NCBI GenBank assembly: GCA_027063065.1
Contig: JAMOSO010000007.1
Span: 1,290 to 65,289 of the forward strand
Reading direction: 5' to 3'
Origin: Planctomycetota bacterium
GTDB taxonomy: Bacteria; Planctomycetota; JAMOSO01
DNA length: 64,000 bases
The notes beneath the pieces are model-generated. The model searched no databases. It saw only the letters and a list, made by a program, of their open reading frames with translations, and was not told the DNA's origin. The translations under genes were made by a program, and so were the position numbers. Below are positions 56,434 through 64,000 of this stretch, piece by piece (position 1 is the stretch's first letter; each line of letters starts with the position of its first letter).

Positions 56434-57393
56434 ATGAAGATTATAAGCCTTAGCTACAATACTTTTTTAGAGATAATACGTCAGCCATTTTTCAGTTTAA
56501 TTCTGATAAGTACGGCTGCGATTATCGCTTTGTCACCCGCTTTTACTTTTTTTACTTTGATGGATTCTACAAAGTTGGTGCAAGATATGTCATTGGCAAA
56601 TATGTTGTTGGCAGGTTTGTTTTTAGCTATTTTTTCTGCTGGGGATTCATTGGTTAGAGAATTACAACACCATACAGTGCTTACGTTATTGTCTAAGCCT
56701 ATGGGCAGAAGTAGTTTTGTAATAGGTAAATTTTTGGGTATTTTGGCTTCACAGGCTGTGAGTTTTTATGTGTTGACAGTTGTAAGTTTATTGGTGGTTA
56801 AGTTTGGCACGCAAGATGCAAATTATATAATATTAGAAACGCAATGTATGATATTGCTTGTAATTGCTTTTTTATTGACGCTTATTATAGCTGCTACCAT
56901 GAATTTTTTAGCCAATAAAGTGTTTTTATCTACTGCGGTGATAGTTGCTATTCCGATGTTTACATTGGCTTTGATAGGCGGGGCTTTATTGGATCATAAT
57001 TGGAGTTTTATTGTTTTTGGATCTGATATTAAATGGGATATTGCATTAGCGGGGGCATTAGCTTTTTGTGCCTGTGCAATTTTGTCTGCCGTAGCCATTA
57101 CTTTGGCAACTAGATGCAATTTAACCTTGACGGCATTAGGTACTATTTTAATCTTTTTTATTGGATTAAGTGTTAGCTTTGTAACCAGTCATGTAATTTC
57201 TGTGTCTTGGATGTCAAAGTTTATGATGGCTGTTGTTCCTGATTTTCAAATGTTTTGGGTTGCCGATGCTCTTAATTTAGGTTCTCATATACCTTTTAAT
57301 TATTTATTATTGTCAGCTAGTTATGCTTTAAATTGTATCGTTGCCATTTTAGCATTGGGCTGTTGGCTTTTTTCTTGTACTGAGGTTAGTTAA
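56434..57393 (+). CDS. polytopic membrane protein (ABC-2 permease-like)
   Basis: 319 aa with 6-8 TM helices. Its stop overlaps the next start (TAATG). Confidence 0.5.
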   Translation: MKIISLSYNTFLEIIRQPFFSLILISTAAIIALSPAFTFFTLMDSTKLVQDMSLANMLLAGLFLAIFSAGDSLVRELQHHTVLTLLSKPMGRSSFVIGKFLGILASQAVSFYVLTVVSLLVVKFGTQDANYIILETQCMILLVIAFLLTLIIAATMNFLANKVFLSTAVIVAIPMFTLALIGGALLDHNWSFIVFGSDIKWDIALAGALAFCACAILSAVAITLATRCNLTLTALGTILIFFIGLSVSFVTSHVISVSWMSKFMMAVVPDFQMFWVADALNLGSHIPFNYLLLSASYALNCIVAILALGCWLFSCTEVS

Positions 57394-59246
57394 TGCTTGA
57401 ATTACAACCAGATCAATCACTTGTTTCTCATAAGCGCGCTTTAGCTATGTCTGCTTTTGGTCTATTTTTTACTATTATATTAGCAGTTGGTTTTTTTGTA
57501 TGTGATATGCAAGTACCAAACGTGGGTACAGAGGCTACATCATGGATATTAATAGTGCTTGCTTGTTCTTGGTTATATCCATTGTTGGAGCTTTATTTAG
57601 AAACACGAGTGGATAGAGAGGCTATTGATATTGAATATTTAAAAAGTCAAAGTAGCCAAGGTAACTTATTTGACGATGCTGATGATTATTCTGCTGCTGC
57701 TAGGTTAAAATTAGTGAAGTTTTGGTTAGTTCCAATATTTGCTTTATGTATGGGCGTGCTTTCTTTAGTTTTGTCCTTTTATGTGTGGCACTTAAAAACA
57801 GACAAAAATATAATTATAGATCAAAATTCATTGGTAATTACAGGTTTTATACAAGCTTTCATAGGTTTTATTTTATTTATTTTTGCTAGATTTTTGGCAG
57901 GCTTAGCATCTCAATCTGGGTATGGTATTTTAAGATCTCCTGCTGGGTTAATGATGTTATCTGCTTGGGCTGCATTATTATCGGCAATTGCTAGAGCAGG
58001 TAATTATATGAATTGGCCTATCGGATCTGTTGCGCTTGGATATATATGTGCAGTAGTTCTAGGTTTATATGCTTTAGAAACCTTGGGTGGTGTTGTATTG
58101 CATATTTATAGTAATCAAAAACAAACTAGGCGACCTCCGCAGGATTCACGTTTATTGTTTATTTTGGCTTCTCCGAGCCGTATTGCTAAAAGTATAGGAG
58201 ATGTCTTAGATTATCAATTTGGGTTTGAAATTTCAAAAAGTACCATGTATCGTGCGTTTGAAAAGGGAATAGCACCATTTTTGATAGCGCAAATTATTAT
58301 ATTATGGCTGTGTAGTTCTATTACTATTATTGATGCTGGATATGTAGGTTTTGTAGAGCGTTTTGGCAAACGGGTTAGCAAAATACCGCTAGAGGCAGGT
58401 TTGCATTTTAATTTACCTTGGCCAATTGACAGTATACGCAAAGTTAATGTTGGCAAGGTGTATGCTATGCAATTGGGTTTATTGAATGAAAAACAAGAAA
58501 TTAGAATATGGACTACAGAACATGGTCAAGCTGAAGAGTCTATGGTGGTTGCGTCTGCAGAATCAGTAGGTGATGAAGTCCCTGTAAATTTATTGGCAAC
58601 CAGTTTTGCTTTAATTTATAAAATTCGGCCAAACAGGGCTGTTGTATGGGCATATAATTATGCCAATGCAAAGGATTTATTTGAAAGTAGGGCTAAAGCA
58701 GCTTTGACAAGGTATTTGACAACGGTTGATTTTTTTAAAGTGATGGGAGAGGGAAGGCGTAAGGAAGCAAAGCGTTTAACTACAAAATTAGAGGCTATTG
58801 CAAATTCGATGGGTGTTGATTTAGCTTATGCAGGTTTTGTAGGTGTGCATCCACCTGTTGAGGTTGCAGAAAGTTATGAAGCTGTAGTTAAGGCAGATGA
58901 AGCCAAGCGGGCAAGGTTGCTACAGGCAGAATCGACTAAAAATAAGTTAAGTACATCTGCGGGTTATGAGGCAAAGGTTATCGAGTTAAATGCTCAGGGT
59001 CAGGCTGCTGGTATTGTGGCATTAGCTAAAGGTGATGCTGGTCGTTTTGGTTCACAATTAATAGGATATAAAGAGGCTCCAAAATTATATAAAATTCGTA
59101 GGCGACTAGAGATGCTAAAAGTAGCCATGACAAAAAGCAGAAAATATATAGTTCCAGAAGGAAAAGATAGAGTAGATATTTTAAATTTAGAAGAAAAATT
59201 AAGAGCTGATATTACAGATTTAGACTTAAATAGTTTAGCGAACTAG
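57393..59246 (+). CDS. SPFH/Band-7 protein with polytopic N-terminal membrane domain
   Basis: 617 aa. The N-terminal roughly 300 aa have about seven hydrophobic helices. The C-terminus is HflK/C-like SPFH: 'GFVERFGKRV...GLHFNLPWPIDSIRKV'. Confidence 0.65.
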   Translation: MLELQPDQSLVSHKRALAMSAFGLFFTIILAVGFFVCDMQVPNVGTEATSWILIVLACSWLYPLLELYLETRVDREAIDIEYLKSQSSQGNLFDDADDYSAAARLKLVKFWLVPIFALCMGVLSLVLSFYVWHLKTDKNIIIDQNSLVITGFIQAFIGFILFIFARFLAGLASQSGYGILRSPAGLMMLSAWAALLSAIARAGNYMNWPIGSVALGYICAVVLGLYALETLGGVVLHIYSNQKQTRRPPQDSRLLFILASPSRIAKSIGDVLDYQFGFEISKSTMYRAFEKGIAPFLIAQIIILWLCSSITIIDAGYVGFVERFGKRVSKIPLEAGLHFNLPWPIDSIRKVNVGKVYAMQLGLLNEKQEIRIWTTEHGQAEESMVVASAESVGDEVPVNLLATSFALIYKIRPNRAVVWAYNYANAKDLFESRAKAALTRYLTTVDFFKVMGEGRRKEAKRLTTKLEAIANSMGVDLAYAGFVGVHPPVEVAESYEAVVKADEAKRARLLQAESTKNKLSTSAGYEAKVIELNAQGQAAGIVALAKGDAGRFGSQLIGYKEAPKLYKIRRRLEMLKVAMTKSRKYIVPEGKDRVDILNLEEKLRADITDLDLNSLAN

Positions 59247-63104: not shown

Positions 63105-64000
63105 TGCTCTTGTTGTAGATGTTAGAGAAATCAGCAAAACGTTTCGTGATTTTTGGATGCGCCCTAAAGTCAAGGCAGTTCGCAATATTAATTTTACGAT
63201 TAAACAGGGCGAAATATTTGGATTATTAGGGCCTAATGGTGCAGGTAAATCCACAACTATAAAGATGCTTTTAGGGTTGTTGTTTCCAGATAGAGGACAA
63301 ATATCTATTTTAGGCAACCATCCCCGTGCTAATGCTGTTAAAAAATTTATTGGTTATATGCCAGAAGAAAGCTATTTGTATCCATATTTAAGTGCAGAAG
63401 AAACATTGCGATTTTATGGTAAAATTTTTGGTTATTCATCTAAAAGTTTACAAATAAGAGTAGATAGTTTGTTGGAAATGGTAGGTTTAAAAGGAGCTTC
63501 TCAACGACCTATTGGTGAGTTTTCTAAAGGTATGGCTAGACGCATTGCCCTTGCTCAGGCTTTAATGAATGATCCTCAGTTAATTATCTTAGATGAACCA
63601 ACAACAGGTATGGATCCATTGGGAAATAGAGAATTTAAAGAATTGATTTTACACCTTAAACAAAAGGGTAAAACAATTATTATTTGCTCTCACTTGCTTT
63701 CTGATATGCAAGACTTATGTGATACAGTGGCAATATTCTATGGAGGTACTATTGTTAGTAATGGTGCAGTTAAAGATTTATTAAGCCCTAATCAAACATT
63801 AGAAGATTACTTTTTAAGTGTAGTTGACGATGCTAGTGCTAAATTTAATACGGGCGGTGCTAAGGTTGGTGATTTAACTAATAGTATATTTGAACAATCT
63901 ACTGCAAATGCTAAAGAGGCCTCTGTACCCGCGGAAGTGGATGAAGTATTAGAAACAAACGATCCAAATCAAGATGTTATTGATGAGTTATTAGGTAATT
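63097..64000 (+). CDS. ABC transporter ATP-binding protein (3' end beyond window)
   Basis: The ATG overlaps the ATPase stop (ATGTCTGA). Walker A 'GPNGAGKST', signature-like 'FSKGMARRIALAQAL' and Walker B 'LIILDEP'. No stop before the window end. Confidence 0.8.
   Translation, partial: MSDALVVDVREISKTFRDFWMRPKVKAVRNINFTIKQGEIFGLLGPNGAGKSTTIKMLLGLLFPDRGQISILGNHPRANAVKKFIGYMPEESYLYPYLSAEETLRFYGKIFGYSSKSLQIRVDSLLEMVGLKGASQRPIGEFSKGMARRIALAQALMNDPQLIILDEPTTGMDPLGNREFKELILHLKQKGKTIIICSHLLSDMQDLCDTVAIFYGGTIVSNGAVKDLLSPNQTLEDYFLSVVDDASAKFNTGGAKVGDLTNSIFEQSTANAKEASVPAEVDEVLETNDPNQDVIDELLGN

Follow-up and report, generated by a model that had tools for sequence, protein, structure and literature searches.

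A conserved block of three HflK/HflC-type SPFH genes, a P1B-type ATPase gene and ABC-2 exporter genes in a Planctomycetota bacterium and other lineages

The closest described relatives of the system considered here are the HflK/HflC complexes, whose structures with FtsH (PDB 7vhp, 7wi3, 9cz2) give the precedent for HflK/C cages, and the stomatin cage, which encloses aquaporin-1 as well as UT-B, which transports urea (doi 10.1101/2025.08.29.673128). What do the bacterial SPFH proteins (HflK/C, flotillin, stomatin-like) do beyond FtsH, and which membrane proteins are their clients? This is a long-standing question. Here we describe an operon-like block of genes in a stretch of 64,000 nucleotides from a Planctomycetota bacterium (contig JAMOSO010000007.1, positions 1,290 to 65,289; the whole stretch is called the window), in which three SPFH genes stand together with the gene of a heavy-metal ATPase and the genes of an ABC-2 exporter. 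The order of these genes is conserved over hundreds of species, and the block thereby offers a genetically defined client hypothesis.

The block consists of eight genes, six of which (g1 to g6) lie inside the window as plus-strand open reading frames (ORFs) at 56434-64000, with a largest intergenic gap of 7 nt on the ORF map. As assigned with Pfam and NCBIfam, these encode an ABC-2 permease, an HflK-like SPFH protein with six additional N-terminal transmembrane (TM) helices, an HflC-like SPFH protein, a second HflK-like SPFH protein, a CPC-type P1B ATPase and an ABC-2-class ATPase. On the source contig (ENA ERZ27262648; locus L091; length 143 kb) two more operon genes follow. The region past position 64000 was checked for an ABC permease, and the gene table there gives PERM2, a 441-aa ABC-2 permease, starting 41 bp after g6. 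Directly after it comes an eighth gene, for a 451-aa TPR-like protein that is membrane-anchored at its N-terminus; past this gene the source contig carries unrelated genes. The complete order is thus PERM1 – SPFH(K-long) – SPFH(C) – SPFH(K-short) – P1B ATPase – ABC-2 ATPase – PERM2 – TPR-like.

Is this order particular to one genome? About 85 species-level genomes from the PVC superphylum (Verrucomicrobiota, Planctomycetota and Lentisphaerota) share it, with an identity of about 25-32%. A relative of g2 is encoded at no fewer than 569 loci among GTDB species representatives, which do not include the genome of the window, and the best match is 32% identical. The homologs at 24-32% identity come from metagenome-assembled genomes (MAGs) of Verrucomicrobiota (Limisphaerales/Pedosphaerales), Planctomycetota (Phycisphaerae, Sedimentisphaerales, Brocadiia, Pirellulales) and Victivallis. 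Synteny was surveyed with tblastn over 85 non-redundant loci, the surveyed loci being the 80 best matches to g2 and the sample therefore biased to closer relatives; the denominators below are the testable loci. C-type and second K-type paralogs follow g2 in 77 of 78 loci. PERM1 adjoins the SPFH trio in 76 of 77, on the same strand in 63 and divergently in 13, the divergent arrangement being typical of Planctomycetota. The P1B ATPase comes next after the trio in 70/73. The full module of ABC ATPase, PERM2 and TPR-like protein is found in 47/57, with three further loci partial and seven lacking it. Median intergenic gaps within the block are 4-43 bp. The flanks are not conserved: no family outside the eight genes occurs in more than five loci, so a conserved wider neighbourhood was rejected. 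Independent anchors, namely g2 homologs, a homolog of the TPR-like protein and, from the cultured Anaerohalosphaera lusitana, one of the ATPase, lead to the same block or to a modular subset of it (contig gene tables). Scattered homologs would have spoken against the grouping proposed in an earlier note on this DNA; the g2 family is clustered instead, with its order kept, its gaps small and its flanks unconserved.

The block is not indivisible. The seven loci without the ABC module retain PERM1, the trio and the ATPase. One locus (L093) has the trio and ATPase only, without PERM1 and the ABC module, and three others (L007, L008, L094) have the trio and ABC module only, with no ATPase. Since some lineages do without the ATPase and some without the ABC module, the constant core is the SPFH trio; the P1B ATPase and the ABC module are partners that are often present but can be separated from it.

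Some individual loci show further variations. In four Verrucomicrobiota loci a Fic/Doc-family gene lies between the P1B and ABC ATPase genes (L001 16042-16704; L020 12179-12571; L022 14713-15714; L076 7664-8056), and in the first of these a 91-aa gene stands upstream beside it, the two being likely a toxin-antitoxin pair; the ATPase-ABC junction seems to tolerate mobile inserts. A Victivallis MAG (L069 1936-15788) carries the SPFH trio with the P1B ATPase twice in tandem; neither PERM1 nor, within the contig, an ABC module was detected in it. In five Planctomycetota loci (L026, L052, L061, L064, L083) the gene of a GNAT-type acetyltransferase of about 150-190 aa, with CxxC...C in its C-terminal part, stands some 0.1-0.7 kb past the divergent PERM1. 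No flank gene recurs more often, yet it is rare.

The coupling of the genes in the window is tight. g1 (PERM1; 56434..57393) encodes a 319-aa polytopic ABC-2-family permease-like protein (PF12679), and g2 (SPFHL; 57393..59246) the 617-aa HflK-like SPFH protein with the N-terminal six-TM extension (Band_7). Then follow g3 (SPFHC; 59254..60150), for a 298-aa HflC-like SPFH protein with an N-terminal signal-anchor (TIGR01932), and g4 (SPFHK; 60143..61195), for the 350-aa second HflK-like protein, with a GTG start taken from the source-contig gene call. g5 (PATP; 61182..63104) encodes a 640-aa P1B-type heavy-metal ATPase (TIGR01525; exact product on record). g6 (ABCA; 63097..64000) encodes a complete 301-aa ABC-2-class ATPase (PF00005), and its stop codon at 64000-64002 in the source-contig gene table is cut by the window end. 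As read from the sequence, g1 and g2 meet in TAATG at 57391-57395 with GAGG upstream; the g2 stop TAG at 59246 lies within TAGGAG and the g3 ATG is at 59254; g3 and g4 overlap by the 8 nt GTGAGTGA, the GTG of g4 being at 60143 and its Shine-Dalgarno sequence GGAGG at 60133-37; g4 and g5 overlap by 14 nt, with the ATG of g5 at 61182 and AGGAG at 61170-74; and g5 and g6 share ATGTCTGA at 63097-63104 with GGAG upstream. Every internal start thus has a Shine-Dalgarno sequence of its own inside the terminal part of the gene before it, as is usual where translation is coupled. A scan of the block found no intrinsic terminator in it and no promoter-like matches above chance. The source is a low-GC (33%) bacterium of PVC type.

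Most of the earlier note's description holds. The six plus-strand genes lie where it placed them and its domain calls were right, as judged by the ORF map, Pfam and NCBIfam; the junctions TAATG at 57393 and ATGTCTGA at 63097 read as it gave them; and its CPC-type P-type ATPase is indeed a P1B enzyme (TIGR01525, CPC, DKTGT). Its overlaps of 23 nt at 60128 and 32 nt at 61164 were taken from the longest ORFs and have to be corrected to 8 and 14 nt, because the starts in the source-contig gene calls are GTG 60143 and ATG 61182. The longest-ORF forms of g4 and g5 have no exact product on record; the 350-aa and 640-aa forms are those called on the source contig.

What could such a block do? Our preferred reading, held tentatively and as one that may well prove wrong, is that the SPFH proteins form a cage or microdomain of HflK/C type that would organise, stabilise or regulate the P1B pump and the ABC-2 exporter encoded with them, in transition-metal efflux or homeostasis. 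In this scenario the products of g2, g3 and g4 would come together in a hetero-oligomeric cage or ring, as HflK and HflC do in E. coli. The cage would be anchored in the cytoplasmic membrane with its SPFH domains in the periplasm, fencing off a patch of membrane, and the N-terminal domain of g2, which resembles the cation diffusion facilitators (CDFs), would together with its linker serve as a docking or regulatory element for the co-encoded transporters. One client would be the CPC-type P1B pump, exporting a transition metal and closest to the Co/Zn/Fe-type P1B-4 pumps; the other would be a type-V ABC-2 exporter made of the ATPase, PERM1 and PERM2, with the TPR-like protein as a periplasmic partner. 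The most likely role would be transition-metal efflux or homeostasis, the scaffold controlling assembly, stability or activity of the pumps. The clustering itself is strongly supported; the scaffolding and the metal function are plausible. A bolder version appears doubtful: in PVC bacteria a three-paralog cage with a degenerate CDF domain would physically enclose both the P1B pump and the type-V exporter, as a membrane nano-compartment with a dedicated, regulated and periplasm-facing chamber for handling or exporting transition metals. Such a cage would be the first in bacteria whose SPFH proteins have a client set, other than a protease, that is defined genetically.

The SPFH trio is of HflK/HflC type. 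All three proteins match PF01145 (Band_7) in Pfam (g2 1e-13, at residues 312-514; g3 2.8e-29; g4 9.2e-16). g3 reaches 136.3 bits with the hflC model TIGR01932, just above the cut-off of 134.4, and both g2 (88.1 bits) and g4 (111 bits) stay below the cut-off of 159.4 for the hflK model TIGR01933. In a PDB sequence search g3 hits HflC (1.7e-23) and g4 hits HflK (2e-15). Hidden Markov model scores, PDB sequence search and BLAST with HflK and HflC of E. coli all make g3 a C-type protein and g2 and g4 K-type ones. All sampled orthologs share this K(long)-C-K(short) typing, those of g3 all scoring higher to HflC than to HflK. The adjacent K-type and C-type paralogs have the architecture of anchor, SPFH domain, coiled coil and C-terminal region. 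For g2 it can be followed in an AlphaFold2 model built from an alignment of 70 homologs (pLDDT 81.8, membrane helices above 90), in which residues 284-617 (58242..59246) have the architecture of an HflK cage subunit: an anchor helix, the seventh of the protein, at 284-307, the SPFH domain at 310-486, a coiled-coil helix of about 90 residues at 489-578, and C-terminal beta strands.

Are these proteins then simply the HflK and HflC of their lineage? This is the main rival to the scaffold reading: g3 and g4, with g2, would act on FtsH in conventional quality control, and the pumps would be FtsH substrates or co-regulated stress genes, not residents of a cage. The equivalog score of g3 and the matches of g2 and g4 to HflK models are what it expects, and among solved structures the nearest are HflK and HflC in complexes with FtsH. 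In the HflK/C literature (PMC13220708) the P-type ATPase MgtA is named as a substrate of FtsH. However, neither the window nor any of the surveyed blocks holds an ftsH gene, there is no second hflKC pair in the window, and there is no hflX context. The paralogs are three and not two, and one carries a family-specific CDF-like fusion; nor does the conventional model require that transporters be conserved beside the trio across phyla. An hflKC pair next to an unrelated transporter, which the earlier note had named as the simple alternative, also does not describe a locus with three SPFH genes, two of them below the HflK cut-off and one with a family-specific polytopic domain of 300 aa. We regard conventional FtsH modulation as possible, though on the unlikely side.

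The polytopic domain of g2 is what sets this family apart. Residues 8-239 (57414..58109) form a six-helix TM domain that has a CDF-like (ZnT/YiiP) fold by two fold-search methods and by weak in-register Pfam matches. The only non-SPFH matches of the g2 model in Foldseek, and the sole membrane-protein matches apart from SPFH, are cation diffusion facilitators: ZnT3 (E 7.5e-3), YiiP (4e-2), SLC30A10 and ZnT1. Weak matches to Cation_efflux (PF01545) appear in 3 of 70 homologs. In a few homologs, P0108 among them, such matches are in register with helices 4-6; in the best-scoring one, P0091, with 25.9 bits where the cut-off is 26.6, residues 153-245 align to profile positions 102-197 of 198. E76 and E229 of g2 are invariant. 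There is no cytoplasmic ZT_dimer domain; helix 6 is followed by a linker and the SPFH module. This linker, at residues 240-283 (58110..58241), is conserved (RPR...R..FDSRL...DYQFGF) and amphipathic, with S252, R253 and Y274-Q-F-G-F278 invariant in the 70-sequence alignment and helices at 253-276 in the model; it is predicted to be cytoplasmic from the positive-inside rule and the topology of HflK. When residues 1-300 were compared with 1.84 billion representative proteins, 688 matches were obtained, 416 of them below 1e-10. Since nearly all of these matches are proteins of 600-800 aa in which the matching region is N-terminal, the domain exists only as an SPFH fusion. We infer that it is a degenerate, CDF-derived or CDF-like docking or regulatory module and not a classical Zn/H antiporter. 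Its fold strengthens the metal theme of the block.

Which metal would the pump export? g5 scores 505 bits with TIGR01525, above the cut-off of 346, and its motifs ITGES, CPC (in M4), DKTGTLT, SRHPAA (HP) and GDGINDAP are conserved across 71 orthologs from the cluster. Subgroups of P1B ATPases have signatures: YN and MxxSS for P1B-1, K and DxG for P1B-2, SPC and HEGxT for P1B-4. No single one of these three fits g5. Its M5 reads 'INQNflfG', with neither YN nor K, and its M6 reads 'H..GS', with a conserved His aligned to the His of HEGST. The HMA domain, which is optional in the P1B family, has no Pfam match in g5, and the N-terminus is rich in His and Cys. Because M4 has CPC and not SPC, M5 has no YN or K, and HMA is lacking, the metal cannot be assigned from motifs. 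The best solved relative is the P1B-4 pump sCoaT (7qbz, 2.8e-92), slightly ahead of CopA structures, with ZntA more distant. Co, Zn, Fe or Cd would seem more likely substrates than Cu(I).

The exporter is represented by g1, g6 and PERM2. g1 matches PF12679 (6.4e-8; 32.6 bits against a cut-off of 27.2), and a sequence search found no solved relative of it. In PERM2 a large loop follows the first helix (TM1), and its orthologs match PF12679, PF12698 and PF12730, mostly just under cut-off. The two permeases are distant paralogs with weak homology and probably form a heterodimeric membrane part. g6 (PF00005, 3e-33) is a NatA/GldA-like ABC-2 ATPase in which GPNGAGKST, SKGMARR, ILDEPT and CSH are conserved in 59 orthologs; the family motifs are 'LPEESYLY', 'SKGMxRR', Walker A and Walker B. 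It belongs to none of the named equivalogs, DrrA, GldA, NodI, NosF and CcmA among them, as every specific NCBIfam model stays below its cut-off (drrA 209 against 312; GldA 190 against 403). Its nearest solved relatives are the nucleotide-binding domains (NBDs) of ABCA1/3/4/7 (about 1e-62 to 1e-66), and among bacterial single-NBD proteins NosF (4e-49), which is a part of the copper-centre assembly system NosDFY. The first description of the locus, with a permease-like protein and an ABC importer or exporter, was right about the permease; its importer option falls, because g1 and PERM2 are ABC-2 permeases of the ABC ATPase, and the exporter is of type V, ABCA/NosF-like. The TPR-like protein matches no Pfam or NCBIfam model and belongs to a family with at least 2,298 homologs; GldG and NosD were considered for it and rejected, as it matches no such model and its fold is a generic TPR superhelix. 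A defence system was also rejected: PADLOC has no match for seven of the eight proteins, and g6 has generic ATPase matches only.

The same exporter leads to another reading, in which a type-V ABC-2 exporter and an SPFH microdomain form the core, moving a lipid, hydrophobic or polymeric substrate for the envelope, and the P1B ATPase is accessory. Besides the similarity of g6 to the NBDs of ABCA lipid exporters, the loop of PERM2 is placed as in ABCA-type permeases, the trio has no partner more constant than PERM1, and some lineages keep the trio and the ABC genes without the ATPase. SPFH proteins are also organisers of lipid microdomains. However, the ATPase is commoner than the ABC module and stays with PERM1 and the trio in the seven loci that lack the module; both the CDF-like domain and the resemblance of g6 to NosF suggest metals, and no lipid-biosynthesis gene is conserved in the flanks. 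Envelope or lipid export is therefore improbable, and less likely than modulation of FtsH. Least likely of all, and very improbable, is that the genes have no functional link and adjoin by descent or chance co-localisation of membrane-protein genes: the loose ATPase-to-ABC junction with its mobile toxin-antitoxin inserts and the loss of each transporter in some lineages would suit this, but Verrucomicrobiota, Planctomycetota and Lentisphaerota retain the order at an identity of 25-32% with no conservation at all of the flanks, and start and stop codons overlap in the window.

Several points weigh against the scaffold reading with its metal theme and should be noticed. The client role of the transporters is deduced from synteny, in a survey leaning to closer relatives. 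The ATPase is absent in 3/73 loci and the ABC module in 7/57, and the ATPase-to-ABC junction is the loosest of the block, with 17 of 61 gaps above 150 bp besides its Fic/Doc inserts, so that the block may be two or three co-localised units and not one machine. As g3 just reaches the HflC equivalog cut-off, it may have the conventional role of an FtsH modulator. For the CDF-like domain, g2 of the window itself has no PF01545 match and the domain is below the Pfam cut-off; hhalign of the N-terminal domain against E. coli FieF and ZitB is not significant; the D/HxxxD site-A ligands of TM2/TM5 are absent, and helices 2 and 5 hold no conserved D/H pairs. The domain may thus be purely structural or convergent. 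Finally, a Fur-family regulator gene stands divergent from the trio and P1B ATPase in one locus (L093 7783-8160), but this is the sole case among the examined loci, and Fur adjacency was rejected as a general feature.

Why does the block matter? Its components are all of known superfamilies; what appears to be new is that they are associated in a conserved way, that the trio is of the K-C-K kind and that one of its proteins is a fusion with a CDF-like domain. A search of the accessible literature gave no account of this cluster, of such a trio or of a CDF-SPFH fusion, although absence there is not proof. The block suggests, without proving it, that a bacterial SPFH scaffold may serve transporters besides the FtsH protease. 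Since the block is present in the cultured A. lusitana, whose genome is complete (CP019791.1), the proposal is experimentally testable; OZ243981.1 and OX638380.1 are further complete PVC genomes with the block. Three uncharacterised families are defined as well: the CDF-like-SPFH fusion, the TPR-like partner for which Pfam has no model, and a P1B clade with a hybrid signature.

Upstream of the block, a 90-bp intergenic region (56344..56433) separates g1 from the divergent scpB (55732-56343, minus strand; ScpB Pfam match) on the ORF map and presumably holds the operon promoter; a promoter scan of it gave nothing above chance. A riboswitch or other regulatory RNA in this leader was rejected, as the Rfam scan returned one sub-threshold chance match only. 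g1 has no obvious Shine-Dalgarno sequence. At 56421-56438 there is a five-codon ORF, ATG TTT CTT AAA CTA TGA, whose end overlaps the g1 start codon; it may be a leader peptide or a chance occurrence.

Other parts of the window, all on the minus strand, also deserve mention. A biosynthetic-looking operon of six genes at 46316-52055 encodes an O-methyltransferase (PF00891), a xylose-isomerase-like TIM barrel, a dehydroquinate-synthase-like sugar-phosphate cyclase, a UbiA prenyltransferase, a short-chain dehydrogenase/reductase and a TatD-like hydrolase; its product could be a prenylated or methylated cyclitol-type compound. The genes at 52055-53299 and 54044-55675 encode membrane or secreted proteins with alpha-alpha-toroid repeats of the squalene-hopene-cyclase-C/prenyltransferase kind, the 543-aa one having a long acidic low-complexity N-terminal region, and between them (53302-54009) lies the gene of a 235-aa protein of no known family. 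A 645-aa protein encoded at 7797-9734 pairs, unusually, a Tim44-like domain with a C-terminal TerB/DUF533-like region.

How does the block compare with known systems? With the CDFs (YiiP/FieF, ZnT/SLC30) the N-terminal domain of g2 shares the six-helix transmembrane fold. It differs in lacking the TM2/TM5 D/HxxxD site and the ZT_dimer domain, in staying under the Pfam cut-off and in being always fused to SPFH. With the P1B-4 pumps (sCoaT; Co/Zn/Fe exporters) and the P1B-1 and P1B-2 pumps (CopA, ZntA) g5 shares TGES, DKTGT, HP, GDGxNDAP and eight predicted helices. Its M4 carries the CPC of P1B-1 and P1B-2 in place of SPC; it has neither YN/MxxSS (P1B-1) nor K/DxG (P1B-2), and its N-terminus is His-rich and has no HMA domain. 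Its signature is a hybrid one. The exporter is like NosDFY and the ABCA-type (type V) transporters in that g6 is closest to ABCA NBDs and NosF, in its ABC-2 permeases (PF12679), in the large extracytoplasmic loop of one permease and in having a periplasmic accessory protein. In the block, however, this accessory is an anchored TPR-like protein and not the NosD beta-helix, the two permeases are different, and there are no nos genes.

For the SPFH genes, two comparisons are closest. As in the E. coli HflK/HflC-FtsH system, K-type and C-type paralogs stand side by side, and anchor, SPFH domain, long coiled-coil helix and C-terminal beta region are alike. The block has three paralogs (K-C-K) where E. 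coli has two; the first of them bears the CDF-like polytopic domain of 300 aa and a conserved cytoplasmic linker; and the partners are a P1B ATPase and an ABC-2 exporter in place of hflX, with no ftsH nearby. In the stomatin cage and the SPFH-NfeD operons (QmcA-YbbJ, PDB 8z5g), an SPFH oligomer acts on membrane transport proteins or on operon partners, as we propose for the block. The block differs from these in that its subunits are of HflK/C type, its clients are proposed from synteny alone, and its upstream partner is ABC-2 permease-like and not NfeD; like the NfeD-SPFH operons, it has the gene of a polytopic partner immediately upstream of an SPFH gene.

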